Origin: Alphaproteobacteria bacterium
GTDB taxonomy: Bacteria; Pseudomonadota; Alphaproteobacteria; GCA-2731375
DNA: 64,000 nucleotides
Reading direction: 5' to 3'
Assembly: GCA_030752605.1 (NCBI GenBank)
Contig: JASMDX010000064.1
Location: 1-64,000 of the forward strand
Below, piece by piece: positions 18,804 through 49,093 of the stretch. How positions within the stretch are numbered: the stretch's first letter is position 1; every line of letters starts with the position of its first letter. Under the pieces are notes generated by a model. It was not told where the DNA came from, made no database searches, and was given only the letters and a program-made list of their open reading frames with translations. The position numbers and the translations under genes were made by a program.

Positions 18804-19127
18804 ATGTGCGCGCTCTGCGGTGTCTTGGGGGGACGCGGCCACTGGACAGAAAGCGCCGCCGCACCGGAAGCCTTTGCCTCCCGCCCCGAACAACACACAA
18901 GGGCGCGGGAGCGCCAAGCACGCACCCGCCTGGTTAACCGGGTGCTGGGCCACTACGGACTTAAGCTTGACGACTGGTTGGGCGGCGCCCAAGTGTTGCG
19001 CGGGCGCACCGGGCGCACGGCGCTGGTCAATAATCTGTCCGAGATGTGGGCAGCGGCGGACGATCTAAGCCGCCAGGACTGCGATCCCCTGGACCCGGAT
19101 CTGTTGCAACGTCTGGAAAGAGAATAG
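18804..19127 (+). CDS. hypothetical protein (108 aa) between the deacetylase and the CobW-like GTPase
   Basis: The internal ATG at 18804 lies 5 nt after the deacetylase stop. The product is Cys-rich at the start (MCALCGVLGG) and has no family call. Confidence 0.35.
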   Translation: MCALCGVLGGRGHWTESAAAPEAFASRPEQHTRARERQARTRLVNRVLGHYGLKLDDWLGGAQVLRGRTGRTALVNNLSEMWAAADDLSRQDCDPLDPDLLQRLERE

Positions 19128-19130
19128 CCG

Positions 19131-20167
19131 TGGGCGAATTTTCCCAACAGACGCCAATCAATATCATCACCGGCTTTCTGGGCAGCGGCAAGACGACGCT
19201 GCTGAAGGGCCTGTTGACGGCCCCGAACCTGACCGACACGGCGGTGCTGATCAACGAGTTCGGCACCGTGGGTCTGGACCACGAATTGGTGCAAAACGTC
19301 ACCGAAAGTACGCTATTACTGGATAACGGCTGTCTCTGCTGCGCCATTCGCGGTGACCTGCAAGGCGCCCTGCGTGATCTGCTGTCGCGGCGGCAAAGCG
19401 GCCAGGTGCCGCATTTCAAGCGCGTGGTCATCGAAACATCGGGCCTGGCCGATCCCGCCCCCATTGCCTACACCCTATTGGCGGAGCCGGTGTTGCAGCA
19501 TCATTTTCGCCTGGGCGGTATCATCACAACGGTGGATGCGGTCAACGGCGGAGAGCAGCTACGGCGCTTTCCCGAATCCGTGAAACAGGTCGCCATGGCC
19601 GACCGCCTGATCGTCACCAAGACCGACCTGGCAGAACCGGAACAAATCGGCGTTCTGCATGGTAGCCTGCGGCGTCTGAACAAATCCGCCCAGATCATCG
19701 AAGTGGCGGAAGGCGAGATCCAGCCGGCGGCACTATTGACCGACGACATGTATGACGACGAAGGCCGTAGCCGGGAGATTGAACACTGGCTCGCTGCCGA
19801 GGCTGGTGCGGACGCCCTTGCCCATGATCATGCCGACGACATCCATTCCTTTGCCCTGAGCTATCCCGCGCCACTGGACTGGAGCGCATTCAGCATCTGG
19901 ATGAGTATGCTGTTGCACCGCCACGGAAACAATGTCCTGCGCATCAAGGGCTTACTGAATGTCGCGGGCGTGCCCACACCGGTGCTGATCAATGGCGTGC
20001 AGCATATCGTGCATCCGCCGTCCCATCTGCCCGCCTGGCCCTCCGAAAACCGGCAATCACGCATTATTTTCATTGTCCGGGGTATGGACAGAGTGGCAAT
20101 CAAGACCTCGTTGGCTGTCTTCAACAAGCTCGCCAATCCGGACGTGGCGCCGGGACGCGCCGCCTAG
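19131..20167 (+). CDS. CobW/COG0523-family GTPase (putative zinc metallochaperone)
   Basis: The P-loop INIITGFLGSGKTTLL, the CxCC motif CLCCAIRGD and the C-terminal CobW_C domain are present. The start is a GTG at 19131, 4 nt after the previous stop. Confidence 0.8.
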
Positions 20168-29762: not shown

Positions 29763-29830
29763 CCCAGAGCCATTATACAGGGCTTCATGGCAAGCATGGA
29801 CTGCCGCTTTCGTGGGAGTGACAATGGGAT

Positions 29831-30943
29831 ATGGCCGAACTAGACGTTGTCATAGAGCATGTGGATAAGACCTTTCCGGGCGACACCCGGGCGGTCATTG
29901 ATTTCAATGCCGAGATCGTACATGGCGAGTTCGTCTCCATGCTGGGGCCGTCAGGCTGTGGCAAGACCACCCTGTTGCGCATGATCGGCGGTTTGGAGGA
30001 GGTCACGCGGGGCAAGATTTTTATCTCCGGCCAGGATGTCACCGACCTGCCGCCCTCGCACCGCGACACCTCGATGATGTTTCAAAGTTTCGCGCTGTTC
30101 CCCCACAGAACAGTTTTCCAGAACGTTGAATTCAGCCTAAAAATGCGTGGCATGGACAAGAACATGCGCGCCGGCAAGGTTTGGGCCATGCTGGAAACCG
30201 TAGGCCTGGATCAACTGGCGTCGCGCCGGCCGTCCGATCTGTCCGGCGGCCAGCAACAGCGCGTCGCCCTGGCCCGGGCTTTGATTTCGGAACCAACGGT
30301 ATTGCTGCTGGACGAGCCCTTGGGCGCACTCGACTATAACCTGCGCCAGACCATGATGGTCGAGCTGAAAAAGATACAGCAGGAAACCGGCATTACCTTC
30401 ATCATGGTCACCCATTCTCAGCAGGAAGCCATGTCCATGGCCGACAAGGTTATCGTGATGAGCGATGCCATGGTGCAGCAGATTGGGTCATCCAGGGAAA
30501 TTCATGAAAACCCACGCAACCGCTTCGTCGCCGATTTCATCGGCAACAACAATATGTTCAAGGGCACAATCAAATCCCGCAGCGGTTCCATGATTTTTGT
30601 AGAGGCGGAGCAGCAGCTCTATTATATTCGTGTACCAGAGCATATTCGCCAGGTGCCTGTTGGTCAGGAGGCTCATTTCTCAGTCCGCGCCGATCTGATG
30701 CATACGGGGGACAATCCGGACATGGCCAATAAAGTCGTAGGCAGCTATGTCGCGACGGAATTTCTTGGCACCTTGGAAACCGACGTGTTTGAACTTGAGC
30801 CAGGTCAATTCGTACATGTGGAACAGCATCGTAAATTGTCGGACAGTACCTACAAGATTGGCGAGCAAGAGACCTTATGTTTTGCCGCCGATTCCGGCAT
30901 GCTGTTGGAGAGAACTCGGCGGCCGGAGGATTTGGACCGCTAG
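29831..30943 (+). CDS. ABC transporter ATP-binding protein (PotA/MalK-like, with a C-terminal TOBE domain)
   Basis: Walker A GPSGCGKTT, the signature LSGGQQQRVALARAL and Walker B LLLDEPLGALD are present. Confidence 0.85.
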   Translation: MAELDVVIEHVDKTFPGDTRAVIDFNAEIVHGEFVSMLGPSGCGKTTLLRMIGGLEEVTRGKIFISGQDVTDLPPSHRDTSMMFQSFALFPHRTVFQNVEFSLKMRGMDKNMRAGKVWAMLETVGLDQLASRRPSDLSGGQQQRVALARALISEPTVLLLDEPLGALDYNLRQTMMVELKKIQQETGITFIMVTHSQQEAMSMADKVIVMSDAMVQQIGSSREIHENPRNRFVADFIGNNNMFKGTIKSRSGSMIFVEAEQQLYYIRVPEHIRQVPVGQEAHFSVRADLMHTGDNPDMANKVVGSYVATEFLGTLETDVFELEPGQFVHVEQHRKLSDSTYKIGEQETLCFAADSGMLLERTRRPEDLDR

Positions 30944-33759: not shown

Positions 33760-34578
33760 ACGGCGGTAGAGAACCGTGTAGATCCCCAGGAACACCGAGA
33801 TCATCGCCAACGAGAATAGCGTCGAGGCGGTGCCCAGCGCGAACAATGTAGGCCGGATACGCTGGGTCATGGAGGCGTTGATATCCAGGGGCAAGGTGTT
33901 GTCCGCCCCCGCCAGCAACGTAGTGCGAGCGAATTCATCATAGGAAAGCGTGAAGCCGAACAGGCCGGCGGCAACCACCCCCGGGGTGATTAGGGGCAGG
34001 GTAATCTCCTTGAATACGGTCCACTCATCCGCGCCCATGTCGCGGGCAGCCTCCTCCAGGCCGGAATCAAAGCGGTTGAAGACGGCCATCATCACTAGAT
34101 AGCCGAACGGTAGAGCCCAGATCACATGCACCGCCAGGCCGGATGAATACCAAGCCGGCGACAGGCCCAACTGCCGCATCAGAATCGCCATGCCAAGGCT
34201 GAGCAGAACACCTGGCACCATCAGGCCGGTCAAAACTGTGTAGAACAATACATTGGAAAAACGGAACGCCTTGCGAAAAGCCATGGCCAGCATGGTGGAG
34301 AACAGCGCGGTGATAACCATGACCATCAAGGCCAGAATGAGGGAGCGGCCCAGAGCCCCCTGCATGTCGCCCACCGTGGACGGTTCCAGCAACTTATTCC
34401 ACCAATACAGGCTCCAACCCCGCATGGGAAAGGAAGTACCGCCGCGCCGGCCCTGGAAGGACAGGATGAACATGGCGAACATAGGCCCGTAAATGAAAGC
34501 CAGGAAGATCATGTAATAGATCGAGAAGCCGGTCTTCACCCGCAACTTGCGCCATCTTTCCGGTGTCCAGCGAGCCAT
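33751..34578 (-). CDS. ABC transporter permease (PotC-like)
   Basis: The product has 6 TM segments and the EAA-like loop. It is 275 aa. Confidence 0.8.
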   Translation of the reverse strand: MARWTPERWRKLRVKTGFSIYYMIFLAFIYGPMFAMFILSFQGRRGGTSFPMRGWSLYWWNKLLEPSTVGDMQGALGRSLILALMVMVITALFSTMLAMAFRKAFRFSNVLFYTVLTGLMVPGVLLSLGMAILMRQLGLSPAWYSSGLAVHVIWALPFGYLVMMAVFNRFDSGLEEAARDMGADEWTVFKEITLPLITPGVVAAGLFGFTLSYDEFARTTLLAGADNTLPLDINASMTQRIRPTLFALGTASTLFSLAMISVFLGIYTVLYRRSR

Positions 34579-34584
34579 TGGTTT

Positions 34585-35562: not shown

Positions 35563-35654
35563 TTCGATACGGCAAAAAATTAAAAGAATGGGGCCGGCAC
35601 GGAGAATGCCGCACCGGCCCAGTATTATCGCATGATGTTATTCCAAGTCTGTTA

Positions 35655-37126: not shown

Positions 37127-38596
37127 GTGACGGTTCTCATTAAGAACGGCCGCATCATAACGGCGGTGGATGATTACCATGCCGATATCTTCATTGGCAC
37201 CGATACGGTCTCGCTGATCGGGCTCAATCTGGAGATTGATGCGGATCATGTTATCGATGCCGCCGGCAAGCTGGTGATACCGGGCGGTGTCGATCCCCAC
37301 ACCCATATGGAGATGCCGTTTGGCGGCACCACCACATCGGACACCTTCGAGACCGGCACCAGGGCAGCGGCCTATGGCGGCACCACGACCATTGTCGATT
37401 TCGCCATTCAGACCAAGGGCACCTCAACCCTTGCCGCGCTGGATGCCTGGCACGAAAAGGCGGTGGGACGCACCGCCATCGACTATGGCTTTCACATGGT
37501 CATCACCGACATGCCGGATGAACGCCTGCCAGAGATGCGCCGATTATCAGAGGAAGGCGTCACATCCTACAAATTGTTCATGGCCTATCCCGGCGTGCTG
37601 CTATCCGATGACGGTACCATATTCAGGGCCATGCGCAAGGCCGGCGAGGATGGCACCCTGGTCTGCATGCATGCGGAAAACGGTATCGTCATCGACGAGT
37701 TGGTCAAGATCGCATTATCGGAAGGCCATATCGAACCAAAATATCATGCCCTGACCCGCCCCACGCGGCTGGAGGCGGAGGGCGCGCACCGGGCCCTGGC
37801 CATTGCCGAGGTGGCCCAGGCGCCGGTCTATCTGGTGCATCTCAGCTGCTTTGACGCCTTGGAGCAATTGCGCATGGCGCAAGCCAGGGGCGTCATGGCG
37901 CATGCGGAGACCTGCCCGCAATATCTGTTACTGGATATCGACTGCTATGACGAACCGGGTTTCGATGGCGCCAAATATGTACTGACCCCGCCCTTGCGTG
38001 AAAAATGGAATCAGGACGAACTATGGGGCGGCCTGCGCAATTCAGCCCTGGACGTGATCTCGACGGATCATTGTCCGTTCTGCATCCGCGACCAGAAAGA
38101 GATCGGCCGCGATGATTTCTCCCAGATCCCCAACGGCGGCCCCGGCGTAGAAAACCGCATGAGCCTGATTTATCACAAGGGCGTCAACCACGGGAACATC
38201 TCACTGAACCGCTTCGTCGAGCTGACCTCGACCTCGCCCGCCAAGATTTTTGGGCTGTTCCCCAAAAAGGGAACAATCGCCGTGGGCAGCGACGCCGACA
38301 TTGTTATTTTCAATCCCGACCGGGAAGAAATAATCTCGCTACACAACGCCCACACCCACCACATGAACATCGATTACAACGCCTATGAAGGCACCAAGGT
38401 GCGCGGCTTTACTGAAACCGTGCTGTCACGAGGCCAAGTGATTATCGACAAGGGCCAATATCTGGGCCAGCCCGGCGACGGCGCCTTCGTCAAGCGCGGT
38501 CCCTACGGGGGCCTGCACGCCAACAGCCGAGGTGCTGCTGCACGCACGGCACTGACAACTTCGGCCCGCCTGGGCGCCCCGGGAGCGCATCGATAG
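37127..38596 (+). CDS. dihydropyrimidinase / D-hydantoinase
   Basis: The metal-binding motifs PGGVDPHTHM and the cyclic amidohydrolase family are recognised. The start is a GTG after GGGGAGAGGGG. Confidence 0.85.
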   Translation: MTVLIKNGRIITAVDDYHADIFIGTDTVSLIGLNLEIDADHVIDAAGKLVIPGGVDPHTHMEMPFGGTTTSDTFETGTRAAAYGGTTTIVDFAIQTKGTSTLAALDAWHEKAVGRTAIDYGFHMVITDMPDERLPEMRRLSEEGVTSYKLFMAYPGVLLSDDGTIFRAMRKAGEDGTLVCMHAENGIVIDELVKIALSEGHIEPKYHALTRPTRLEAEGAHRALAIAEVAQAPVYLVHLSCFDALEQLRMAQARGVMAHAETCPQYLLLDIDCYDEPGFDGAKYVLTPPLREKWNQDELWGGLRNSALDVISTDHCPFCIRDQKEIGRDDFSQIPNGGPGVENRMSLIYHKGVNHGNISLNRFVELTSTSPAKIFGLFPKKGTIAVGSDADIVIFNPDREEIISLHNAHTHHMNIDYNAYEGTKVRGFTETVLSRGQVIIDKGQYLGQPGDGAFVKRGPYGGLHANSRGAAARTALTTSARLGAPGAHR

Positions 38597-38608
38597 CCCT
38601 GGCGGCGT

Positions 38609-38629
38609 AGCGGGAGTTCCCGTTTGATT
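38609..38629 (+). terminator. small hairpin CGGG-AGTT-CCCG followed by TTTGATTG
   Basis: It lies 13 nt after the hydantoinase stop. The stem is short and was read by eye. Confidence 0.3.
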
Positions 38630-38639
38630 GGAGGAGCTG

Positions 38640-39095
38640 AAGCTAACGACTTTGGGCGTCTAGTGGAGAGCTTCATGCGCAACTGCATCCTGACGACCAG
38701 AAACTCGATCACGGCGAAGATCGCGCCGTATTTGAGGAGATCCTCCGCTCCGTGAACCTGCATTTGTTCGTGTTTGAAGATAGGGACATGATTATCCAAG
38801 CGACCTGCTACCTGAATATTATTCTCAATATTACGCGCTGCATCTCACTAGGGAAGCATTGAAAACGTCGTGACGGAAGAGACCTTGCACTACATGGGTA
38901 TCAGCAAAGAAATCATCAGGCACACGCTACGATTTGCTTGGAACAAGGGTTGCTACAAGATATGTTGCAAACAGGGACAAAACGGGAAGTGACACGCAAC
39001 TTCGATACACCCTTCGGCTTTCGCGGCGACGAGAAATTTGGATTTTTCGCACAGCCTCCCGGCGGCAATAGCTAGAACACGTTCTAAAATTGAAA
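38640..39095 (+). other. AT-rich decayed region with frameshifted ORF fragments (possibly an acetyltransferase-like remnant)
   Basis: GC here is visibly lower than in the surroundings. Three short frames read ...VFEEILRSVNLHLFVFEDRDMIIQ..., ...LRFAWNKGCYKI... and ...GFRGDEKFGFF... No intact ORF longer than 100 aa is present. Confidence 0.2.
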
Positions 39096-39120
39096 AATAA
39101 TCGAGTATGGAGTTTCCAGA

Positions 39121-39651
39121 TTGAGACGCGCAACCGGCTCACACACCATCGTCGATCAGTTAGTCATTGGTCTGATCGAGGGCATCATGACTGTATTTGG
39201 CCTTATCGTTCTTGTCTTTCCTTTGGCGTTGTGGGCGGTGCCCCAGCACGGCGCACTGGCCAACACGGTTTTCTATATTGTCTTGTTGGCAGGCGGTGGG
39301 TCCTTGATTTCCCTGATTGCCCTGGCATATTTGAAAGGCCTGTTATTTCCCAGCCGTTTGGATCAAGACGCACCAATGGGCGGGAAAGCTCGTCTGGAAG
39401 CCTACAAGGCTTGGGGGCAGACACAGGACGATGCCCACAGGGTGGAAAAGCAAATACGGTCCATGAAGGGGGGGGCCCTGCACAATTTCGGCTATATGGT
39501 TCGCATCGCCACCCTACTGAGCACGGTCGTCGCGTCCCTGTATCTCGGCACCTGGGCCTTCATGGATTTTTACTACGGCTCCACGGAGGTTTTATCCGCC
39601 GATGCGAGGTGGGAGCTACTCCATCCAGATGCTTGGGAGTGGGGGAAATAG
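39121..39651 (+). CDS. hypothetical membrane protein
   Basis: There are 3-4 predicted TM helices. The start is uncertain, either the TTG at 39121 or the ATG at 39187 with GAGGG. Confidence 0.45.
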   Translation: MRRATGSHTIVDQLVIGLIEGIMTVFGLIVLVFPLALWAVPQHGALANTVFYIVLLAGGGSLISLIALAYLKGLLFPSRLDQDAPMGGKARLEAYKAWGQTQDDAHRVEKQIRSMKGGALHNFGYMVRIATLLSTVVASLYLGTWAFMDFYYGSTEVLSADARWELLHPDAWEWGK

Positions 39652-39673
39652 GGCACGTTCGGAGTATTCCGGC

Positions 39674-40801
39674 TCAATCTCCGTCCTCGATAAATTCAAA
39701 ATCCTGCCGCCTTTCCACCGGCATGGCGGCGAGGAAATCCTTGGCATCGCTGGCCGACATTGCTTCGACACTGCCATCTTCGTGCTGGACGACCACGCCG
39801 CCCTGCTGCAAGGAAGTGATACGGCGGTCACGCTCGGCCCGTTCCGGGTCGCAGACCAGGGCGCAATTGCCACAGGTTGTGGATAAATCACGGCCGCCGA
39901 AACCGAACACCATGGGCTGCTTGTTGGTCACGCCGTCCGGCGCGGGACGGCGGTTGAAAGGCGGGATGGCCTGACGGTAGGCGCCCTTCAACTCCTTATC
40001 ATCATTGGGGATGGGGAAACGGCCCGGCGACCAAGTCGACCAGCGGCGATTCTTGGCTAGGCCGTTGTAGCCGGCGCAGACATAGGTACAGCGGGCATAG
40101 TCGCGCCGTTCCGTATAGGTGAATTCGCGCCCGCCCATGGTGACCGTAACCTTGTCCTTTTTGCCAAAGCGGAAAAAGCCGGATGGACACGAGGCATTGC
40201 AGGCTTGGCACTCGTCGCAATAGTTATCCTCTTCCGCCAGGGGCTGGTCGGCGGTCAGGGGCACATCGGAAACAGCGGTGGCGAAGACCACATTGGGGCC
40301 ATGCTCCGGCGTCAGCACATTACCGGAGAAACCGAACCAGCCAAGGCCGCTGCGGATCGCCAGATAACGGTGCGACAGATCGGGCTGTTGTTCGATGTAC
40401 CTGACGTCGTTACCGGCGCGGTAGACCGAATTCGACATTACAGCCACCGCCTCGGCCCCAAACTGGCCCAGATAGCTGGCCACCTGTCCGGCGATGCCGC
40501 TTGCCATAGTGTTGGAATGGTTCTGATCCCGCTGATGGCCGTGCCGGTCTTTCTTGGAGAGATAGGCGCGGATATTGTCCGCATCATAGGGCACGGCAAA
40601 GGTTATCGCGGACCTGGCGCTACCCAGAATATGGTTGAGATCGGTCGAGGGCGGGCCACCAGCCAGGGAGTCCAGATCATTGATACCGACCGAAGTAGCG
40701 CCGTAGGCCAACGCTACCTCCTTGATTTTCTTCTGCATGTCCTTGATGGAAACCGTGCCCGCGGCACCATGCATCATGCCATCGGCATATTTCTCAACCA
40801 T
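39674..40801 (-). CDS. QueG/reductive-dehalogenase-superfamily 4Fe-4S protein (epoxyqueuosine-reductase-like, divergent)
   Basis: The N-terminus is like QueG (DMQKKIKEVALAYGATSVGIN), with AIRSGLGWFG and the ferredoxin motifs CDECQACNASCP and CGNCALVCDP. The second cluster is spaced much farther than in QueG. The start is uncertain (40801, 40825 or 40858). Confidence 0.6.
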   Translation of the reverse strand: MVEKYADGMMHGAAGTVSIKDMQKKIKEVALAYGATSVGINDLDSLAGGPPSTDLNHILGSARSAITFAVPYDADNIRAYLSKKDRHGHQRDQNHSNTMASGIAGQVASYLGQFGAEAVAVMSNSVYRAGNDVRYIEQQPDLSHRYLAIRSGLGWFGFSGNVLTPEHGPNVVFATAVSDVPLTADQPLAEEDNYCDECQACNASCPSGFFRFGKKDKVTVTMGGREFTYTERRDYARCTYVCAGYNGLAKNRRWSTWSPGRFPIPNDDKELKGAYRQAIPPFNRRPAPDGVTNKQPMVFGFGGRDLSTTCGNCALVCDPERAERDRRITSLQQGGVVVQHEDGSVEAMSASDAKDFLAAMPVERRQDFEFIEDGD

Positions 40802-40903
40802 TCTAAATACCCTGATCCAATCCATGACAACTAAACCATCAATTGTACAGCCACACAAAGCGCAAGAGTTAATTATATTAAATTAAGAATTGCGTCCCCA
40901 TAA

Positions 40904-41608
40904 CTAGGTCCGATCAAGAAAGCCTAAGATCCAGGCAGCAGCAGCGGCTTCATCGGTTGGCGTGGACATACTATCAAGGGCGGCATCGGCCGTGACGGGG
41001 CCGATAATATCCCGGCGCACCCGGAGCAATTCGCTGGCGAAGTCCCTGGTCAATTCCGGGTGGTTTTGGATGCTCAGTACGTTCGCTCCAATGGTCATGA
41101 TGCCAATAGGACAAAAGTCGCTGCCGCCGTGCACTTCCGCGCCTGGTGGCGGCGTTACGACCTGGTCCTGATGAGAGGCCAACAGGGACAGGCTTTGTAG
41201 TGGCGGCACCATCCAATCCGCCGTGTTCGTAACTTCATGGCTGTGCACGCCAACGCCCCAACCGGACGCATTTTTCACCTCGCCGCCAAAGGCTTGGGCG
41301 ATCAACTGGTGGCCAAAACAAATGCCGACGACGGGCCGGGTTTCTGACGCCGTCCGCGTAAAAGCCTCCAACAAAGGGATCCAGGCATCGCCGTCGTAGA
41401 CCGCGGCCGCAGCGCCGGTGATCAGCCAGCCGTCGCATTCTTCCGCAGCCTGGGGAAATTCACCATCATAACAGAGATAGGAGCGTAACTTCGGCCCCTC
41501 ACCGGTGGAATCCAGGAAATTCTGAAAGGCATCCGAGAAAGATGTCAAATAGCCGTGAAATTCTGGCGCTACCGCGCCCGCTTCAAGTATGCCGATGGTC
41601 AAGGCCAT
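40904..41608 (-). CDS. class I glutamine amidotransferase-like protein
   Basis: The catalytic-Cys motif is VVGICFGHQLIAQAFGG, with NHPE nearby. The product is 234 aa. Confidence 0.7.
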   Translation of the reverse strand: MALTIGILEAGAVAPEFHGYLTSFSDAFQNFLDSTGEGPKLRSYLCYDGEFPQAAEECDGWLITGAAAAVYDGDAWIPLLEAFTRTASETRPVVGICFGHQLIAQAFGGEVKNASGWGVGVHSHEVTNTADWMVPPLQSLSLLASHQDQVVTPPPGAEVHGGSDFCPIGIMTIGANVLSIQNHPELTRDFASELLRVRRDIIGPVTADAALDSMSTPTDEAAAAAWILGFLDRT

Positions 41609-41613
41609 GGCTA

Positions 41614-42528
41614 CTAATCGACTAGATTGCCCTTTTCATCACGGACCTCAGGCCCGCGGACACGGGCGCGGCCATCACCGAAACCTTCGTCACGGCCCGC
41701 TAGCGCGGCCTTGAGACCATCGGCACGGGCGACCTTGCGGAAACTGCGTGTGCCGGGCGCCAAATGGGCGCGGGCATCGTTCTCAGCCGCCAGCCGTTGC
41801 AGGGTCCTCGCACCCATCAGTTCAAGCCCCAAATTGACGATACGTTTGTTGGCGGTCAGCAGATCGGGATCAATCTTGGCCAGGCGGCTGGCCAGGCCCT
41901 CGACCTCAGCCTCCAGCAAATCGCTAGGCACGGATTTCATCACCAGGCCGATCTCCACCGCCTCTGCGCCTGTAATGGTATCGCCGGTCAGTACCAGGCG
42001 CTTGGCCCATTGCGGCCCACAATGATAAACCCACATCTGGTTCGGCAACGATCCGAGGTCGCGGGCGGGGGGAAAGCCGATCACCGCATCATCCGCCGCA
42101 ATCACCATGTCGCACAGCAAGGCAATATCGGTGCCACCCGCCAGACAATGGCCATGGATTTGCGCAATGGTGGGTTTGTGCATATCAAACAGCACCATGC
42201 GCAGGCGCTGGCTGTATTCCAGGCGCCAGATATCATCATCAATGGTGGGATCGGCATAGATGCCGCCGTCGCGATAACTGCGTCCGGGACGGCCACCGGC
42301 GGGTGGGTTGTTCAGGCCCGGTGTAAGATCATAGCCGGCGCTAAACGAGGGTCCCGCGCCGCGAATGATAATGCCATGGACCTCCTTGTCGTTGTCCGCC
42401 TCCCACAGGGCCTCGTTAAACTCTTCCAGCAGCGGCACAGAGAGGGCATTACGCTTTTCCGGCCGGTTCAGAGTAATACAGGCGCGACCGTCGACGGCCT
42501 CGTAAAGGATATGCTCAAACTGATTCAT
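41614..42528 (-). CDS. enoyl-CoA hydratase/isomerase (crotonase) family protein
   Basis: The motifs ITLNRPEKRNAL and GAGPSFSAGYDL are present. It lies 5 nt upstream of the GATase gene. Confidence 0.8.
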   Translation of the reverse strand: MNQFEHILYEAVDGRACITLNRPEKRNALSVPLLEEFNEALWEADNDKEVHGIIIRGAGPSFSAGYDLTPGLNNPPAGGRPGRSYRDGGIYADPTIDDDIWRLEYSQRLRMVLFDMHKPTIAQIHGHCLAGGTDIALLCDMVIAADDAVIGFPPARDLGSLPNQMWVYHCGPQWAKRLVLTGDTITGAEAVEIGLVMKSVPSDLLEAEVEGLASRLAKIDPDLLTANKRIVNLGLELMGARTLQRLAAENDARAHLAPGTRSFRKVARADGLKAALAGRDEGFGDGRARVRGPEVRDEKGNLVD

Positions 42529-42537
42529 TTCCGAAGC

Positions 42538-43020
42538 CTAATGCTCTTGTGCCCGACCTCTACGTCCAACCGGGCGCATGACCTTCAATAGCCAGAATAT
42601 GATGCAAAAAACACCGGTTAAAATGACCAAAGCAACCACCGCCGCCAGGCGTTTGCCAAAGGCCTCATCCAGGCTGTAGCCGGGCGCCAACAGGTAAACA
42701 CAAAGGATCTGCACCGCCTGCAAGGCAGCACCTGCCGAAAACAGAATGGCGATGAAGGTGGAACCGCGCAACGAGGTCAGCACCATGCTCTCAACACTGC
42801 GCTGCTGGACAATGTGGGATTGATAGGCCCGCCAATGGTAACCGCAGAAACCGGCTATACCGACAATGACAACAGCCCACAGAATAGAATTTTCATAACT
42901 CAAACCGTTCAGGACCAGATTGAACAGATCCTCAAACGGTTTGTAGAAATACAAAAAGATCAGAACGACGATATAGATAATAAAGCCCACAAGGGTCCAG
43001 AACCACTGCCACCCATTCAT
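42538..43020 (-). CDS. small polytopic membrane protein (paralog of 21770..22288)
   Basis: It shares the N-terminal motif LIFLYFYKPFE and the 4-helix topology. It lies 9 nt upstream of the crotonase gene. Confidence 0.5.
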   Translation of the reverse strand: MNGWQWFWTLVGFIIYIVVLIFLYFYKPFEDLFNLVLNGLSYENSILWAVVIVGIAGFCGYHWRAYQSHIVQQRSVESMVLTSLRGSTFIAILFSAGAALQAVQILCVYLLAPGYSLDEAFGKRLAAVVALVILTGVFCIIFWLLKVMRPVGRRGRAQEH

Positions 43021-43103
43021 ATGCCGTCCCCTTTGAACCTTATCCTGTGCCGCATTTTAGCCGTCACGATGGCCGCGCGATAGGGTCAAATGCCGGCAAT
43101 TAT

Positions 43104-43910
43104 TCACTTCAATGCATCCGAGATCAAACGGCCAAAGATAACCATCTCCGGACTGGTCCCACGATAGGTATCAAGGGCAGAAAGAATGGCCGGAATTTCC
43201 GCCATGTCAGGCATCGCGGCATCCGGTATCGGTGGCAGTTGAGCAAACAGCTCCACCACCGCTCCGTCCACACCCGCCAACAACGCCACCCGTGCGGCGT
43301 CGGTTCCGGGCGCGGTGAACAGCGGTACCAGGACCCGGGCCAGGTGCGAAAAATAGGCCGGCCAACGGGCCAAAATACGATAGAGTCCGGGCACGAATGG
43401 CGTGCCATCCACATCCGTTCCCAATTTCAACAAGGACGTACGAGTGTCCTCATCCGCCAAGGCCGGATCGAGCATTGTGGGCAGGACCGGCAGGGCCTCG
43501 GGCGGTTGCCAGCCGGCGCCGGGCCAGCCGGCGCCTTGGGGCCGCTCCTCCGCCAGCAGATGACGCAGTAGACCGGCGAACATCAGATTGACCGGCGCCA
43601 CCCGGACAAAGCCGGCGCAGACCTGGGCCACCAGCCGCAGATCACCTCCGGAAAGACCAAATTCCCGTGCATCGAACGACGCCAGAGGCGGCAGTGGTAA
43701 ATCGGTGGCGACCCGCCAACCGGCGTCTTGTGCCTGCCCGGACCGAAAGGCCGGGTTCAACGCGGCCCAGCTCCACTCCAGCCAGCCCGGCTTGGTCGCC
43801 AGATGGCGCTGCAATGACGAGACATAGGGCACGGCCCAAAGCTGGCGGATTTCTTCGTAGATCCCCGCGATCTCACCCGTGGCCGCGTCTTCCGGCAGCT
43901 CCACCAGCAT
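43104..43910 (-). CDS. DehI-family protein (halocarboxylic acid dehalogenase DehI-like)
   Basis: The N-terminal signature GEIAGIYEEIRQLWAVPYVSSLQRHLATKPGWLEWSW resembles the DehI family. The start is taken at ATG 43910; the longer ORF would overlap the amidase by 90 nt. Confidence 0.45.
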   Translation of the reverse strand: MLVELPEDAATGEIAGIYEEIRQLWAVPYVSSLQRHLATKPGWLEWSWAALNPAFRSGQAQDAGWRVATDLPLPPLASFDAREFGLSGGDLRLVAQVCAGFVRVAPVNLMFAGLLRHLLAEERPQGAGWPGAGWQPPEALPVLPTMLDPALADEDTRTSLLKLGTDVDGTPFVPGLYRILARWPAYFSHLARVLVPLFTAPGTDAARVALLAGVDGAVVELFAQLPPIPDAAMPDMAEIPAILSALDTYRGTSPEMVIFGRLISDALK

Positions 43911-43924
43911 CTGATCAGCCACCG

Positions 43925-45346
43925 TCAGACCGTCAGCGGTGGGCGGCGCAGATGCCACTCCGTGGCTTGCTCGTAAGCATAGGCGACCTGCAATAGCAAC
44001 GGCTCTTCGAACCAAGGGCCCAACAGTTGCAAGCCAATCGGCAGGCCGGCTTTCGTAAAGCCACAGGGAATGGAGATCGCTGGCTGGCCGGTAAAGGCCG
44101 CCAGCCGGGTCAATTGCCCCAGCGCCTTCCAGCCGATGACTTCCCGCTCACCCACCATAGTCTTGCCCGTGGCGATAGGCACCGAGGGGATCACCGCCGT
44201 CGGCATGGCCAGAATAGGTGTTTGCGACAAAACCCCGGCCATTTCCTGACGCACCCGTGTTTGAGTTTGCCGCGCCCTGATGTAATCCGTAGCGCTCAAA
44301 CCTTCGCCCAGGCGCAGGCGCTCGTTGACATCCGGCGACAGCTGGTCGGCATAATCACGCAGATGGCCATCGTGCACCGTGTGGGCCTCGCCCATGGCCA
44401 CGACATTCCAGCCCTGAGTGGCATCCCGATTAAAGGACAGCACCGCCTCCTCCACTGCCGCGCCCAGGTCCTGCAGCACGCCCAGGGCAACGTGCACGGC
44501 GGCCTCGACCTCCCCATCCAGGCGATCAAAGAAGAAGTCGCGCGGCACGCCGATACGCAGGCCATCCAGGGGCCGGCCCAGCAACGCGGTATAGTCGTCG
44601 GCCACCCTGGCGTTCGCGGTCGACGGATCGGCCGGGTCGGCGCCGGCGATGGCGGTCAGTACCAAAGCGGCGTCGCGCACTGTACGCGTCAGGGGGCCGC
44701 CGTGATCAAGGCTTTCACACAATGGATAGATGCCGGAGCGGGAAGCCAGGCCATAGGTCTGCTTCAAGCCAACGACGCCACACAGGGAGGCTGGAATACG
44801 GATTGATCCGCCGGTATCACTGCCTAGGGTGGCCATGGCCAGGGCGGCGGAGGTGGCGCAACCGGACCCCGATGAGGAACCGCCGGAGACATAATCTATG
44901 TTCCATGGGTTCCGCGCGGTGCCTACGTGTGGGTTGATACCCGTGGGGCCAAAGGCGAATTCATGCAGGTTCAACATCCCCACCATGACGGCGCCGGCCT
45001 CACGCAGGCGAGCAACGGATGTGGCGTCCGTATTGGCGATGTCTTCGGACAGCAGTTTCGAACCACAGGTGCGTTCCATGCCCGCGACCTGAAACAGATC
45101 CTTAACGGCCATGGGAATGCCATGCAACGGCCCGCGATAGTTACCGGCGGCGATTTCGGCCTCCGCCTCCTTAGCCGCCGCTATTGCGGCATCGGGATAG
45201 AGGGAGATATAGGCATTCAAATCTGGGTTCAACGCCTCGATCCGGGCCAGTTGACTTTGCATCACCTCGACGGGGGAGACCTCACGCGCGGCAATCATCG
45301 TGGCTAACGATGCGATATCCATTTGGGCCAATTCGTCGATACTCAT
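43925..45346 (-). CDS. amidase (amidase-signature family, GatA-like)
   Basis: The amidase-signature segment GGSSSGSGCATSAALAMATLGSDTGGSIRIPAS is present. The start at ATG 45346 has GGAGG and overlaps the upstream gene stop (ATGA). Confidence 0.8.
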   Translation of the reverse strand: MSIDELAQMDIASLATMIAAREVSPVEVMQSQLARIEALNPDLNAYISLYPDAAIAAAKEAEAEIAAGNYRGPLHGIPMAVKDLFQVAGMERTCGSKLLSEDIANTDATSVARLREAGAVMVGMLNLHEFAFGPTGINPHVGTARNPWNIDYVSGGSSSGSGCATSAALAMATLGSDTGGSIRIPASLCGVVGLKQTYGLASRSGIYPLCESLDHGGPLTRTVRDAALVLTAIAGADPADPSTANARVADDYTALLGRPLDGLRIGVPRDFFFDRLDGEVEAAVHVALGVLQDLGAAVEEAVLSFNRDATQGWNVVAMGEAHTVHDGHLRDYADQLSPDVNERLRLGEGLSATDYIRARQTQTRVRQEMAGVLSQTPILAMPTAVIPSVPIATGKTMVGEREVIGWKALGQLTRLAAFTGQPAISIPCGFTKAGLPIGLQLLGPWFEEPLLLQVAYAYEQATEWHLRRPPLTV

Positions 45347-46425
45347 TCCACAGCCTCCGGGATCGCAACGATTAACAAAATACCGTAAATGGCAACGAAG
45401 ATCGTGTCTTTGACCGCGCCCAAGCCCTGCTTGCCTTCGTTGCCCTGGATCAACATGACGATGATCTCTAAAACGAAGGCGATGATGGCCAGAAAGAAGA
45501 ACGGCCAGACCGTGCTCCACCACGAGATCTCCGGTAGGGGCGCGGCGCCCTCGGGCACAGTCTTCATGGCGCGCCAGATCAGCAACAGGATCGGCAGGGC
45601 GATGAGATAAGCATGCGCCAGCAGAAAACGCAGCCGCGTGCGGGTCCGATCCAACACCCAAAAGACCAGAAAAAACAGCGCCACATAAAGTACATCCCAG
45701 AACATCGCGGCGTATTCTTCGCCTCCGGGGTCTTGCCGCAGGTTGAGGAAAGCCAGGATCAACAGGATTGTAATGGCATCACAGAGCAGCCATTCCCGGA
45801 AGTTCTCCGCCACGTCCTTGACGTTCCAGCCCCGCGAGGCCTTGTCGAACAGCAACACCAGAGCTACCGCCAGAGAGGCCGGATAGATCAGGCCCAGAAC
45901 CAGTGAATACTGCTCGGCCCGGGGCAGATAAATCCAATTCAACAGCAAGAACGCGGCCAGCAGGCCCAACAGACCCAACAGGCGCAGTCCCGCCGGCGTT
46001 GGCTGGGTCGCCGCATCGGGAACGGCGGCCGCGGTCTCCGCCGGCGCCGAAGCGGCGCCGATTGACGGTGCCGCCGGCGCGGCACTTTGCCCTGATCTCT
46101 GGGCCACCAGAAAAATCAGGAAGCCGATCAGGCCCAGACCGCCGACAACCAGCATAATGACGACAAAGGTGATGGCCCGGCCATCGGCCCGCCAGTCCGC
46201 CGCCTGGCCCAACAGGCCCTCAGTGGAAAATTGCCAGATTGCGAGCACCGCAATGACCAACAGCAACAGCGCGGCCAAGAGGTATTGATACCATCGGTTG
46301 GCGCCGCCGCCGCCGTCCTTCGATTGAGCAACCGTCCGGCCAATGAGAAAGACCAAGAACGCCAGCATGCCGACAACGGCGATGGCGATCATGACCTCCA
46401 GAAATATAATTGACCGACTATCCAC
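45343..46425 (-). CDS. hypothetical polytopic membrane protein (360 aa) with an Ala/Pro-rich linker
   Basis: The protein has a hydrophobic profile throughout. There is no family call. Confidence 0.5.
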   Translation of the reverse strand: MDSRSIIFLEVMIAIAVVGMLAFLVFLIGRTVAQSKDGGGGANRWYQYLLAALLLLVIAVLAIWQFSTEGLLGQAADWRADGRAITFVVIMLVVGGLGLIGFLIFLVAQRSGQSAAPAAPSIGAASAPAETAAAVPDAATQPTPAGLRLLGLLGLLAAFLLLNWIYLPRAEQYSLVLGLIYPASLAVALVLLFDKASRGWNVKDVAENFREWLLCDAITILLILAFLNLRQDPGGEEYAAMFWDVLYVALFFLVFWVLDRTRTRLRFLLAHAYLIALPILLLIWRAMKTVPEGAAPLPEISWWSTVWPFFFLAIIAFVLEIIVMLIQGNEGKQGLGAVKDTIFVAIYGILLIVAIPEAVE

Positions 46426-46473
46426 CGTGCCCCAAATCCTGCGTTAGTTTCTTAAATCCAATCACTTCGACGG

Positions 46474-47226
46474 CTATGCCCGCAGCGTTACGTCAAAGCG
46501 ATCCTTGAAGGCTTGGCGTAGGGTCTCGAACCGCACGCCAGCCCGGATCACCGAGAAATCTCGAAAGTCTATGATAGTTGATGATCGGCCCTGGTGGTTA
46601 GCATATTGCGACAGGCCGTAATCGAAACTGAGATCCGCCGCTGCCCGCACCGCTTCGTCAATGTCGTCCAGACGGTACTTGCTGCCCGACAAAGAAAGAT
46701 TGGCAGAGGAACCGAACACCGGCATTTCACGGTCCCAAGCCTGGCGGGCGATTTCGTCGTGCACCTGCCCAGCGTTCAACAGCATATCCAGGGTACCGGC
46801 CTTGGATGATGATTCCAGAACAAACGGATCCACTCTGGCCAAAATGGGATGATCTTCGCGAAACGGCGCCACCACGGAAAATGGCAGACCGACCTGTTCG
46901 ACCATTTCCCTCACCATGCCGTGCCGGTCCGCCGCCATGATATGCAACTCCGCGCTCATGGCATAATTGCCAAACATGCCGGAGGGTTTTTCGTAGCTCC
47001 GTTGCTTGGTATCAAAAATGCGGCGGATACCCTGGGGCGTGGCGGCCAGGATAGCATATGCCACATCCAGGGGGGCAATGGCGACACCGCCCGCCGCTAG
47101 ACAATCCAGCAGGGCGCCCACTTCGGCGGAGAGTTGTTCGGGTCCCACCGCATCCTGGGTCCGCCGCTCGTCCGGGGCGCCAGGCTCTATCGTTGTTTCG
47201 GCCTCGATCATGCTACTTACCACCAT
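46474..47226 (-). CDS. YrdC/Sua5-family protein (L-threonylcarbamoyladenylate synthase-like)
   Basis: The YrdC-domain core LLDCLAAGGVAIAPLDVAYAI and ...VFGSSANLSG are present. The start is taken at ATG 47226, 1 nt after the upp stop. Confidence 0.7.
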   Translation of the reverse strand: MVVSSMIEAETTIEPGAPDERRTQDAVGPEQLSAEVGALLDCLAAGGVAIAPLDVAYAILAATPQGIRRIFDTKQRSYEKPSGMFGNYAMSAELHIMAADRHGMVREMVEQVGLPFSVVAPFREDHPILARVDPFVLESSSKAGTLDMLLNAGQVHDEIARQAWDREMPVFGSSANLSLSGSKYRLDDIDEAVRAAADLSFDYGLSQYANHQGRSSTIIDFRDFSVIRAGVRFETLRQAFKDRFDVTLRA

Positions 47227-47227
47227 G

Positions 47228-47863
47228 CTATTTCGTGCCATAGAGGCGGTCGCCCGCATCGCCCAGGCCCGGCAGGATATAGCCGATATCACTCAATTGC
47301 CGGTCGATGGCGGCGGTCAGAATGGGAATCTCTGGATGTGCGGCGGCAAATGCCTTGACGCCTTCGGGGGCGGCGACCAGGGCAACAAATCGTATCTGTT
47401 TGGCGCCGGCCTCTTTCAGGCGCGTGACAGCAGCAGCGGAGGAATTGCCCGTAGCCAGCATGGGATCGACCACAATGACCTGCCGCTCGCCGATGGAATA
47501 GGGCAGCTTGAGATAGTATTCCACCGCCTCCAGGGTATCATGATCACGGTACATACCGATGTGGCCAACACGGGCCGAGGGGATCAGATCCAGCATACCT
47601 TCCAGCAAACCATTGCCGGCACGGAGGATGGAGACTAGGCAGAGTTTCTTGCCGTCCAGGGCGGGTGCCTGCATGACCTCGAGCGGGGTTTCGATTTCGA
47701 CCTGCTTCAAGGCCAGATCGCGCGTTGCTTCAAACGCCAGCAGCAAGGCGATTTCCCGCAACAACTGCCGGAATTCGGCTGTGGAGGTTTCCTTGCGCCG
47801 CAGCAAGGTCAATTTGTGCTGGATCAGGGGATGATCCGCCACTGTCACGTTTGCTGCCGCCAT
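47228..47863 (-). CDS. upp: uracil phosphoribosyltransferase
   Basis: The Upp family is recognised along the protein, from [12 protein letters not shown] through the C-terminal [10 protein letters not shown]. The product is 211 aa. Confidence 0.85.
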
Positions 47864-48088
47864 TGCGCCAAGCCTCTCTGTTTATTCCCGGCACAGTGTA
47901 ACCAAGGGACCCGAAAGGACATAGCCCCTTCGCGGAATTGATATTCATGAGCGCTTTGATTGGTAGCCAAAGTATGGCTGTCGCGGAAGCCGAAAGCGGT
48001 TGCCGCCACATCAAATGCTTCGCCGCAGGAAGCATGGGAACACGATCAGAATACGGCTACTTTCTTGCTAAATCTGTTTTCATCTATG

Positions 48089-49093
48089 TCATATTAAATT
48101 TGAATATAAAATTGGGTTCCGGTTGGCGATTGACATAACGGGCGTATTTGACGAACCTTCGAACAATGGTCGAAGTGTACAAGGTCTAGACTTTCTGCCT
48201 TCGGACATATGCCTTCGTCCGGCGCCGACGTGATCGGCGTACATCTGGTTAACCGGCGCGCCGCCGACGATCACCTTCACATCATCGCGCAGTCCGGCTT
48301 CCGCCAAGGCGTCGATAATCTCCTTCATCTGCGGCATGGTCGTCGTGAGCAGCGCCGATAGGGCGACGATGTCGGGGCGGTGTTCGCGTACCTGTTCCAC
48401 CACCTCCTTGGTCGAGACGTTCACACCCATGTCGATGACCTCGAAACCGGTGCCCTTCATCATGGAAAGCACCATGTTCTTGCCGATATCGTGCAGGTCC
48501 CCCAACACCGTGCCGATCAGTACCCGCCCGCCACGCTTGACGTTGGAGGTCGCCAGATGCGGCTCCAGCAACTTCAGGCCGTCATTCATGGCCCGGGCCG
48601 AGAGCAGTACCTCGGGAATAAAAACCGTGCCATCGGAAAAACGGCCGCCGATCACGTCCATGGCCGGCAGCATGCCCTTATTCAGGATATCCTGGGCTGG
48701 ATAGCCCTGGTCCAGCAATTCCTGGGCATGTACCAGGATGTCTTCCTCCTCGCCTTCCAGAACATCGTTGGTGACCTGCCCGAAGGCTTCGCCGACATCC
48801 ATCTCAGCGATGGTTTCTTCAGTCGTTTTCGTGGGCGATTTGGGCGTCACCGCTGCCTTGGCTGCGTCAAGACTAGCCTCTGTAACCGGGCGGTAGCTGC
48901 CAGCGGTAAGCGGCAAACCACCCTCCTTCTCGATCCGGTCACCAATGTAGAGCAAGCGGTCGAAATCAGCATCGGGCGGCGTGGTATCGCCGATCGAGGC
49001 GATGAAGCGGGTACCCGGCGCAATGGTCTTGAACATGTTGTCCATGAAGTCCTTGAGGTCTTCATGGGTCGAGGATTTCTCCAGCAACAACAT
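48089..49093 (-). CDS. cobalamin (B12)-binding domain protein (corrinoid-protein-like) with an N-terminal extension of about 110 aa
   Basis: A B12-binding_2 cap is followed by the DxHxxG-type motif GTVLGDLHDIGKNMV and GVNV...ALSALLTT. The C-terminal tail is atypical. Confidence 0.6.
   Translation of the reverse strand: MLLLEKSSTHEDLKDFMDNMFKTIAPGTRFIASIGDTTPPDADFDRLLYIGDRIEKEGGLPLTAGSYRPVTEASLDAAKAAVTPKSPTKTTEETIAEMDVGEAFGQVTNDVLEGEEEDILVHAQELLDQGYPAQDILNKGMLPAMDVIGGRFSDGTVFIPEVLLSARAMNDGLKLLEPHLATSNVKRGGRVLIGTVLGDLHDIGKNMVLSMMKGTGFEVIDMGVNVSTKEVVEQVREHRPDIVALSALLTTTMPQMKEIIDALAEAGLRDDVKVIVGGAPVNQMYADHVGAGRRHMSEGRKSRPCTLRPLFEGSSNTPVMSIANRNPILYSNLI

Follow-up and report, generated by a model that had tools for sequence, protein, structure and literature searches.

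Among described catabolic systems, the hyu and reductive pyrimidine (Pyd) clusters place a dihydropyrimidinase or D-hydantoinase beside a dedicated importer and amide hydrolases, and proceed by opening the ring and then removing a carbamoyl or amide group. HyuA/HyuB-type proteins are found in the caprolactamase (CapAB) system and in the N-methylhydantoinase (HyuAB) system, the latter together with N-carbamoylsarcosine amidase, while the 1-carboxybiuret branch of cyanuric acid degradation is the setting of AtzE, AtzG and AtzH, of which AtzE acts on a carboxy-ureido compound. Here we describe a locus that resembles each of these in part. It lies in a 64,000-nucleotide stretch of DNA from an Alphaproteobacteria bacterium (contig JASMDX010000064.1, positions 1 to 64,000; the whole stretch is called the window below), and its core is a minus-strand run of nine co-directional genes at 39674-47863, from upp to a gene for an Fe-S protein. 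From comparative synteny, the nine genes appear to be a mosaic, specific to the lineage and assembled on a conserved backbone, and not one dedicated pathway; the locus may serve in the uptake and hydrolysis of cyclic amides or ureides.

Like the hyu and Pyd clusters, the window has a dihydropyrimidinase/D-hydantoinase beside a dedicated importer and amide hydrolases, and a predicted order of ring opening and then carbamoyl or amide removal. Unlike them, it has no dihydropyrimidine dehydrogenase (PydA), no nitrilase- or M20-type N-carbamoylase and no hydantoin racemase, and carries instead an amidase-signature enzyme, a protein of the DehI fold, a class I glutamine amidotransferase (GATase), a YrdC-like protein and two orphan membrane proteins. 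HyuA/HyuB homologues belong to the conserved neighbourhood as well, and variant clusters place the yrdC-like gene and an isochorismatase-family hydrolase directly after HyuAB; however, the HyuAB pair of the window scores at about half or less of the caprolactamase cut-offs and lies on the opposite strand from the run, at a distance of about 13-20 kb. To our knowledge, no role for a YrdC-like protein in lactamase or hydantoinase systems has been described. The amidase finds its best curated match in the AtzE family, but the match is below cut-off, there is no adjacent AtzG-like gene and neither AtzH nor AtzD, and the partner is a DehI-fold protein. A sequence-only reading of this DNA had stated that no characterised pathway combines such genes and had proposed an uncharacterised system; both statements hold within the literature searched, in which we found no description of a pathway or system with this combination.

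The open reading frames (ORFs) confirm the extent and the co-directional arrangement given in that reading. It had counted ten genes; nine were found, its own list also names nine, and no junction within 39674-47863 is big enough to conceal a tenth. In 5′ to 3′ order on the minus strand, the features of the run are:

47228..47863, minus strand: upp, uracil phosphoribosyltransferase, 211 amino acids (aa), first of the run (TIGR01091, PF14681)
46474..47211 (alternative ATG at 47226), minus strand: YrdC-like protein, 245 aa, assigned to the backbone (PF01300)
45343..46425, minus strand: mem360, membrane protein with about ten transmembrane segments (ten hydrophobic segments), 360 aa, orphan family, assigned to the backbone
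43925..45346, minus strand: amidase-signature amidase, 473 aa, apparently an inserted module together with the DehI-like gene (PF01425)
43104..43910, minus strand: DehI-fold protein, 268 aa, without the dehalogenase catalytic residues (PF10778 below threshold; fold match)
42538..43020, minus strand: mem160, membrane protein with four transmembrane segments, 160 aa, orphan family, assigned to the backbone
41614..42528, minus strand: crotonase/enoyl-CoA hydratase family protein, 304 aa, accessory (NF006128)
40904..41608, minus strand: class I GATase-like protein, 234 aa, module gene (PF00117)
40802..40903, no strand: AT-rich spacer of 102 nt, GC 0.35, directly upstream of the Fe-S gene
39674..40801 (to 40858 with an upstream TTG start), minus strand: RdhA/QueG-superfamily protein with two [4Fe-4S] clusters, 375 aa, apparently a lineage-specific add-on

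With the starts favoured by gene callers, with which public gene calls on identical contigs agree, the junctions measure 16 nt (upp/yrdC-like; 1 nt if the ATG at 47226 serves as the yrdC start), 48 nt (yrdC-like/mem360), -4 nt (mem360/amidase), 14 nt (amidase/DehI-like), 83 nt (DehI-like/mem160), 9 nt (mem160/crotonase), 5 nt (crotonase/GATase) and 102 nt (GATase/Fe-S gene). The ATGA overlap between mem360 and the amidase gene, reported earlier, is seen directly in the sequence (GGAATGAGT), and the junction range of 1 to about 100 nt given with it becomes -4 to 102 nt. The earlier reading had also set AT-rich limits to the block. The first of these, 40830-40900, is indeed AT-rich (GC 0.35), but it lies within the block, between the GATase and Fe-S genes, and not at an edge; the other, 38600-39120, has a GC of 0.49 and is located past an additional plus-strand gene, mem176 (39121-39651). 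Position 39674 is likewise no functional boundary, in that the same-strand backbone runs on into a substrate-binding protein (SBP) and permeases at 33751-36941.

For all nine genes the ratio of nonsynonymous to synonymous substitution rates (dN/dS), computed against orthologues in four related contigs, is 0.03-0.23, indicating purifying selection, and all nine are therefore real genes. The source is an uncultured marine alphaproteobacterium of the Rhodospirillaceae type, and proteins identical to those of the window occur on many marine metagenome contigs and metagenome-assembled genomes. The GC of the block is 0.596 as against 0.589 for the window, and the GC at third codon positions (GC3) is 0.62-0.76 in each gene; horizontal transfer was considered on grounds of composition and rejected, since GC and GC3 of every gene fit the window. 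Consensus scans of 38400-48400 gave promoter and terminator counts not above those of shuffled controls. A TATAAT-like stretch occurs inside the 40802-40903 spacer, and the consensus scan called no promoter there. An Rfam scan of the whole window returned no RNA family at gathering score, and there is thus no riboswitch upstream of upp; shared 10-mers, as candidate operators, gave just two matches among the eight intergenic regions, which is chance level. Because the promoter and terminator matches do not beat shuffles, it is the spacing of the genes that suggests that the nine are probably co-transcribed, at least in part.

The argument for a mosaic comes from comparison of loci. A survey anchored on the Fe-S protein gave 80 genome loci, 75 of them (L011-L085) at 40-75% Fe-S identity, and further loci were gathered by anchoring on the DehI-like and YrdC-like proteins; neighbours were grouped by all-ORF clustering. 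Loci of the window type with all nine genes are L001-L010 and L094, and the full nine-gene order is confined to these loci, all with an Fe-S protein of 88% identity or more. Conservation of the neighbourhood in relatives, which the sequence-only reading had put forward as a check, is thus found for parts of the run, and for the complete order at this close range only. L098 is without the Fe-S gene; L089 and L090 are without the crotonase and Fe-S genes and have a short-chain dehydrogenase/reductase (SDR) gene instead; and L104 has the DehI-like gene, mem160 and the GATase gene in order. The junction between the GATase and dihydropyrimidinase genes is a variable spot: it is empty in L098, and its occupant is the SDR gene in L089 and the Fe-S gene in L010, L094 and the window, where mem176 is present as well.

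Two more divergent loci bring the flanks of the run into the comparison. The flanking genes of the window that are concerned are:

39121..39651, plus strand: mem176, small membrane protein, 176 aa, in L001-L005 only, with no match in L006-L010
37127..38596, plus strand: dihydropyrimidinase/D-hydantoinase, 489 aa, convergent with the run (TIGR02033)
35655-36941, minus strand: PotD-like SBP of an ABC importer, assigned to the backbone
34585-35562, minus strand: permease 1 of the ABC importer, assigned to the backbone
33751-34578, minus strand: permease 2 of the ABC importer, assigned to the backbone
29831..30943, plus strand: PotA-like ABC ATPase, assigned to the backbone, 74-76% identical in L179 and L180
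26893..29709, plus strand: SPFH/Band 7 protein, 938 aa, backbone-associated, also in L179 (PF01145)
24571-26832, plus strand: HyuB, ATP-dependent hydantoinase/lactamase family (Pfam Hydantoinase_B)
22514-24574, plus strand: HyuA, ATP-dependent hydantoinase/lactamase family (Pfam Hydantoinase_A)
19046..20167, plus strand: CobW-family GTPase, upstream of HyuAB here and in L180 (61% identical)

In L180, whose YrdC-like protein is 66% identical to that of the window, one co-directional array reads CobW, one other gene, HyuA, HyuB, SPFH/Band 7, ATPase, YrdC-like, mem360, mem160, SBP, permease, permease; there is no upp, amidase, DehI-like, GATase, crotonase, Fe-S or dihydropyrimidinase gene. The minus strand of the window has this same order with insertions, namely yrdC-like, mem360, (amidase, DehI-like), mem160, (crotonase, GATase, Fe-S), SBP, permease, permease, and the rest of the L180 array corresponds to 19046-30943 on the plus strand of the window (CobW, HyuA, HyuB, Band 7, ATPase). 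In L180 the ATPase gene is directly upstream of the yrdC-like gene. L179 (YrdC-like protein 70% identical) begins with upp, a gene for a protein like isocitrate lyase/phosphoenolpyruvate (ICL/PEP) mutase, the yrdC-like gene, two isochorismatase genes, mem360 and mem160, and continues beyond mem160 with a convergent dihydropyrimidinase gene and then the SBP, permease, ATPase and Band 7 genes. Both loci thus keep yrdC, mem360, mem160 and the ABC importer and are without the amidase, DehI-like and GATase genes, and the SBP and permeases follow mem160 in the same order in both, at 74-83% identity. Where YrdC-like proteins are 61-74% identical, their genes stand right after HyuAB and/or before an isochorismatase hydrolase gene (L091, from Aquibium sp. 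A9E412, GCA_030398335.1, and L092, L093 and L181).

These comparisons suggest that the conserved unit in marine alphaproteobacteria is a backbone of the YrdC-like protein, mem360, mem160 and a PotD-type ABC importer, usually accompanied by HyuA/HyuB, the SPFH protein and CobW. The window has every one of these, at 19-37 kb. Onto this backbone the window appears to have added the amidase and DehI-fold pair between mem360 and mem160, the GATase and crotonase genes and the convergent dihydropyrimidinase gene, and hydrolase modules seem to differ by lineage, with isochorismatases and an ICL/PEP-mutase-like protein elsewhere. The single fixed pathway of ten genes that was first proposed does not survive: the crotonase and Fe-S genes are dispensable, and L179 and L180 are in addition without the amidase, DehI-like and GATase genes.

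The YrdC-like protein of the backbone scores 34 bits with PF01300, above the gathering threshold (GA) of 25.1, and shares with TsaC/Sua5, YciO and the YrdC-like domains of HypF and TobZ both the PF01300 family and a KxR...SxN tetrad, which we take to be the nucleotide/substrate-binding tetrad of TsaC/Sua5; its K69-Q-R71 and S168-S169-A170-N171 are invariant in 24 homologues (61-84% identity). Unlike TsaC/Sua5, however, it fails the TsaC model TIGR00057 (34 bits against a cut-off of 123.2, with the C-terminal 80 residues alone matching), has no Kae1/TsaD-type partner and stands in transport and catabolic neighbourhoods. Its nearest solved structure is 3l7v, the uncharacterised SMU.1377c, and not TsaC or YciO. 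A search of the PLSDB plasmid database with the YrdC-like protein gave a single distant match (39%), in Variovorax. The locus concerned, L178 (Variovorax paradoxus CP063167.1, 878100-879594), has a tandem pair of YrdC-like paralogues with 35-39% identity to the protein of the window. Genes for a member of the ICL/PEP-mutase family, for TctC-type binding proteins, for a CoA ligase and for dehydratase subunits like LeuC and LeuD stand in the same operon-like run, which gives the YrdC subfamily of the window a further non-tRNA context.

The two orphan membrane proteins have no Pfam or NCBIfam match, mem360 none even at E<=10, and the mem360 family comprises only 106 representative clusters among 1.84 billion proteins. 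The mem360 gene directly follows the yrdC-like gene in the window clade and in L180, and follows the two isochorismatase genes in L179; mem160 adjoins mem360 in L179, L180 and L092, in the last of which what adjoins it is a C-terminal fragment of mem360. The most conserved gene of the run is mem160 (dN/dS 0.03-0.04), with 92-97% protein identity where neighbouring genes have 66-84%, and it has the lowest GC (0.51) and GC3 (0.62) among the genes compared. A 40% paralogue of mem160 is found between CobW and HyuA in L180. The plus-strand mem176 was compared as a possible mem160 paralogue and rejected, and it has no family match.

At the head of the run, Upp is a bona fide equivalog (TIGR01091 270.8 bits against a cut-off of 208.35, residues 6-211; NF001097 283 bits against 114; PF14681 257 bits). 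The upp gene adjoins the yrdC-like gene in the window clade, is separated from it by one gene in L179, and is missing from L180, L091-L093 and L181.

The amidase is a full-length amidase-signature protein (PF01425 375 bits, profile positions 1-445), in which the motifs KDLF, GGSSSGS and GSDTGGSIR are seen in the sequence, the last two in the Ser-cisSer-Lys region. Its best NCBIfam matches are AtzE-family models (NF006631 346 against 461 bits, TIGR02715 335 against 426 bits), and with AtzE, GatA (323 bits) and PRK06169 as the nearest models it is below every cut-off. No AtzG small-subunit gene is found beside it, the flanks being mem360 and the DehI-fold gene with no ORF of about 70 aa. Of the 53 loci with enough flank, 15 have an amidase gene directly upstream of the DehI-like one, and the pair is also found outside the cluster, in the Methylomirabilota order DctP, amidase, DehI-like, HpcH aldolase. 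The amidase and DehI-like genes thus seem to behave as an independent two-gene module.

Whether the DehI-like protein is a dehalogenase is a separate question from its fold. With group I 2-haloacid dehalogenases (DehI, DL-DEX and the D-DEX HadD) it shares the same two-repeat, all-helical fold and detectable homology, and both are real: although PF10778 scores 23.2 bits, under its GA of 28.9, a profile of 26 homologues finds D-DEX HadD, DehI and DL-DEX in the PDB at E 1e-13 to 1e-7, and the AlphaFold model (predicted local distance difference test score, pLDDT, 94) matches 3bjx, 5gzx, 4n2x and 3wj8 only in Foldseek (template-modelling score 0.70-0.78, probability 1.0). The catalytic aspartate of these enzymes (Asp189 of DehI, Asp205 of HadD) is strictly conserved in D-DEX and DL-DEX (PMC5780510). 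In alignments to the 3bjx and 3wj8 profiles, the window protein has in its place an invariant leucine, Leu176 (G175-L176-Y177 replacing S-D-F), and the water-activating Asn114 of DehI (Asn131 of HadD, in GNPKY) corresponds to Ala105 in R-V-A-P-V-N, a position that is Ala, Ser or Gly across the 26 homologues. Replacement of both water-activating residues rules out that the family is a known kind of haloacid dehalogenase. Its partners differ too: besides amidases, DehI-like genes elsewhere adjoin those for family III CoA-transferases, hydrolases like gamma-glutamyltransferase (GGT), luciferase-like monooxygenases or enolase-superfamily enzymes, and not dehalogenation genes. Since many other polar residues are invariant (R22, R103, R116, R250, C98, D215 and several Tyr and Ser), the protein is probably an enzyme or ligand-binding subunit for some other small acid. 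A PLSDB search with the DehI-like protein gave no match.

The remaining genes of the run are modules or accessories. The crotonase (NF006128 313 bits, above the cut-off of 257) is present in the window clade and L098 and missing from L089, L090, L104, L179 and L180. The GATase matches PF00117 at 54 bits and PRK05665 at 178 bits, under the cut-off of 309, with a nucleophile-elbow motif GICFGHQ and a His-Glu motif NHPE seen in the sequence; it is present in L089, L098 and L104 and missing from L179 and L180.

The Fe-S protein fits the RdhA/QueG/CblC superfamily, with a nitroreductase-like B12-binding core and a two-[4Fe-4S] ferredoxin insert, and is a putative cobalamin binder. Public pipelines label it 'epoxyqueuosine reductase'. 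However, it scores 42 bits with the QueG model TIGR00276 (cut-off 200; residues 155-228 alone match) and 36 bits with the RdhA model TIGR02486 (cut-off 160), and at E<=10 its Pfam matches are generic Fer4 families only, with no DUF1730 and no HEAT. There is no twin-arginine motif in its N-terminus (MVEKYADGMMHG) and no RdhB-like partner gene beside it, its neighbours being the GATase gene and the convergent gene for the 176-aa protein that is absent from L006-L010. It differs from RdhA and QueG also in a distinct C-terminal beta/alpha domain and in having no constant neighbour: across the 75 loci with 40-75% identity the Fe-S gene never adjoins any of the other eight cluster genes, and the commonest neighbour of any kind recurs in at most 7 of the 75. 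Missing from L089, L090, L098, L179 and L180, the Fe-S gene is a recent insertion at the variable junction, behind the AT-rich spacer, that stands outside the proposed pathway and probably has its own transcription. Its family is a third, apparently uncharacterised branch of the cobalamin-type RdhA/QueG superfamily, with relatives numbering above 900 and spread over marine alphaproteobacteria, Desulfobacterales, Chloroflexota, Planctomycetes and Methanosarcina.

Turning to the flanking genes, the dihydropyrimidinase scores 597 bits with TIGR02033, above the equivalog cut-off of 393, and is found beside the cluster in every locus that extends that far, as well as in L179 (80%) and L092 (82%). 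For HyuA and HyuB the best NCBIfam models are those of caprolactamase CapA/CapB (535 and 247 bits against a cut-off of 1000), and the pair is 48-52% identical to the HyuAB pair immediately preceding the yrdC-like genes in L091 and L093. In the 938-aa SPFH/Band 7 protein only the N-terminal 180 residues are assigned to the domain; its counterpart in L180, between HyuB and the ATPase, is 67% identical.

Several other genes of the window deserve mention. Immediately upstream of upp, at 48089-49093, is an ORF for a corrinoid methyltransferase partner protein of the MtgC/pyl type with B12-binding domains and an N-terminal extension of about 100 aa (some gene callers start later, giving 237 aa); it does not belong to the block, as L005 has TRAP transporter genes (DctP, DctQ and one uncharacterised) in this position and L089 a flagellin gene. 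At 32265-33759, an MR_MLE enolase-superfamily gene and an epimerase gene look shortened (265 and 189 aa). Because the near-identical contig L004 (18770-20763) has longer versions (392 and 270 aa), a deletion of about 500 bp that inactivated both genes in the window's strain group is suggested. An isochorismatase-family hydrolase at 10394-11104 is 35-52% identical to those beside the yrdC-like genes in L091, L093 and L179 and has weak similarity to RutB and BiuH. Together with a creatinase/M24-fold hydrolase at 14486-15712 and a sarcosine-oxidase-like flavin adenine dinucleotide (FAD) enzyme at 30971-32251, it hints at more catabolism of amides or N-methyl amino acids nearby.

The class of substrate, the sequence of reactions and what the YrdC-like, DehI-fold and membrane proteins do are inferred. 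The locus would import a hydantoin-, dihydropyrimidine- or lactam-type cyclic amide or ureide and hydrolyse it stepwise, scavenging nitrogen, or nitrogen and carbon; we give this proposal roughly an even chance. The ring would be opened by the dihydropyrimidinase and/or HyuAB. De-amidation or decarbamoylation would fall to the GATase-like enzyme and to the amidase, in whose place the variants have isochorismatases. The YrdC-like enzyme might catalyse the ATP-dependent adenylation of a carboxy or carbamoyl intermediate, which is plausible because its KxR...SxN tetrad is invariant, and upp would convert any uracil to uridine monophosphate. The substrate class is suggested because the dihydropyrimidinase is above its equivalog cut-off and HyuAB is nearest to caprolactamase, and because the amidase is nearest to carboxy-ureido enzymes and the variants use isochorismatase-family amidohydrolases, a family that includes RutB, biuret hydrolase and N-carbamoylsarcosine amidase. 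A ureido-catabolic route had been one of the options of the sequence-only reading, and the flanking dihydropyrimidinase and HyuA/HyuB genes fit it.

A number of observations weigh against the proposal of cyclic amide hydrolysis. The window shows neither a canonical N-carbamoylase nor a canonical dihydropyrimidine dehydrogenase, and the likeness of the SBP to PotD is weak. HyuAB and the ATPase are on the opposite strand and 9-25 kb from the yrdC-like gene, and because of this their link to the run in the window depends on a few loci (L179, L180 and L091-L093). The upp gene is the second most conserved of the nine (dN/dS 0.04-0.07, behind mem160) and could be a housekeeping gene that is merely located upstream. 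The consensus promoter and terminator scans give no signal either way for co-transcription. Finally, part of the synteny may reflect shared ancestry and not selection, because the cluster-bearing loci are all from uncultured marine bacteria that are probably related lineages.

A rival view is that the genes have no shared function, being co-oriented unrelated neighbours in a variable region whose conservation reflects recent common ancestry only. The restriction of the full order to close relatives, the coming and going of several genes, the housekeeping character of upp and the lack of any regulator or shared operator found all agree with it. We consider it unlikely, however, because the order yrdC, mem360, mem160, SBP, permease survives at 54-83% protein identity despite rearrangements and insertions, the pairing of amidase and DehI-like genes recurs in a different phylum, and the overlapping ends and short gaps (5-16 nt) point to coupling in translation or transcription. 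A biosynthetic role can also be imagined, in which the YrdC-like protein adenylates a carboxylate or carbamate, the amidase and GATase supply ammonia, and mem360 and mem160 export the product, a ureido or amide metabolite that might be an osmolyte or signal. TsaC, HypF and TobZ are YrdC-fold enzymes that form adenylates in biosynthesis, a class I GATase is present, and the amidase is as near to GatA as to catabolic amidases; yet the constant partner is an SBP-dependent importer, the enzymes that are exchanged in the variants are purely hydrolytic (isochorismatases, dihydropyrimidinase, HyuAB) and there is no ligase or synthetase scaffold for the glutaminases, so that a biosynthetic role seems quite unlikely. 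Within the cyclic amide proposal itself, the substrate could be creatinine or an N-methylhydantoin and not a pyrimidine-derived ring, with HyuAB as N-methylhydantoinase, the amidase or isochorismatase as N-carbamoylsarcosine amidase and the FAD enzyme as sarcosine oxidase. In L091 and L093 the yrdC-like gene and an isochorismatase gene come after HyuAB, and the window holds the FAD enzyme, which is like the sarcosine oxidase beta subunit, the creatinase/M24-fold hydrolase and the isochorismatase described above. This version is nevertheless decidedly improbable: the matches are far under family cut-offs (SoxB 129 against 529 bits), HyuA is closest to caprolactamase and not to a hydantoinase equivalog, the genes are spread over 30 kb, and the dihydropyrimidinase and upp point to pyrimidines.

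The two other options raised by the sequence-only reading fare worse. One is a single operon of about ten genes encoding an undescribed pathway, with the DehI-like and QueG/RdhA-like proteins as dehalogenase-type enzymes for a halogenated substrate. The genes are co-directional and tightly spaced, the full order is kept in L001-L010 and L094, and the two proteins truly have the DehI and RdhA/QueG folds. Calling them two dehalogenase-superfamily members is nonetheless misleading, the catalytic Asp and Asn having been lost from one and the other being encoded by an unlinked add-on, and the replacements at Asp189 and Asn114, the five loci without the Fe-S gene, the failure of that gene to adjoin any cluster gene at 75% identity or less, its AT-rich spacer and the lack of a twin-arginine signal and RdhB-like partner leave a route for halogenated compounds without support and highly improbable. 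The other option was a nucleoside or tRNA-modification-like pathway composed of a YrdC-type carbamoyl-adenylate synthase, a QueG-like reductase and upp. Agreement with the Pfam Sua5_yciO_yrdC family, the retained KxR/SxN tetrad and the 'epoxyqueuosine reductase' label would favour it. The TsaC and QueG scores (34 against 123 and 42 against 200 bits), the missing DUF1730 and HEAT matches, the lack of TsaB, TsaD or TsaE genes nearby and the consistently catabolic or transport contexts of the yrdC-like family make it scarcely credible. In general, the family assignments of the earlier reading hold at the level of superfamilies; the TsaC, AtzE, PF10778, QueG and RdhA models all fail in profile searches, and Upp passes.

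More tentatively, and with a good deal of doubt, the backbone might constitute an unrecognised catabolic or uptake system, in which the YrdC-fold protein adenylates a carbamate or N-carboxy intermediate with ATP and a repurposed DehI-fold protein is an obligate partner of the amidase; the YrdC fold would then have a first catabolic role, outside tRNA or cofactor biosynthesis. As we rate it, the locus would be a catabolic island for N-heterocycles or amides that adds three uncharacterised families to a known ring-opening logic.

If the cyclic amide proposal is true, a modular island with which nitrogen is scavenged from cyclic amides or ureides is present in abundant, uncultured alphaproteobacteria of the sea, with pyrimidine, hydantoin and lactam-type dissolved organic nitrogen among its targets. 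Three hypothetical families gain a testable context, namely the YrdC-like enzyme (which is neither TsaC nor YciO), mem360 and mem160. Two automatic labels are corrected, in that the 'DehI' protein is not a haloacid dehalogenase of the known type and the 'epoxyqueuosine reductase' belongs to a separate, widespread branch of the RdhA/QueG superfamily. The locus also shows that a tight co-directional run of genes need not be a single pathway and can have arisen by accretion of modules.

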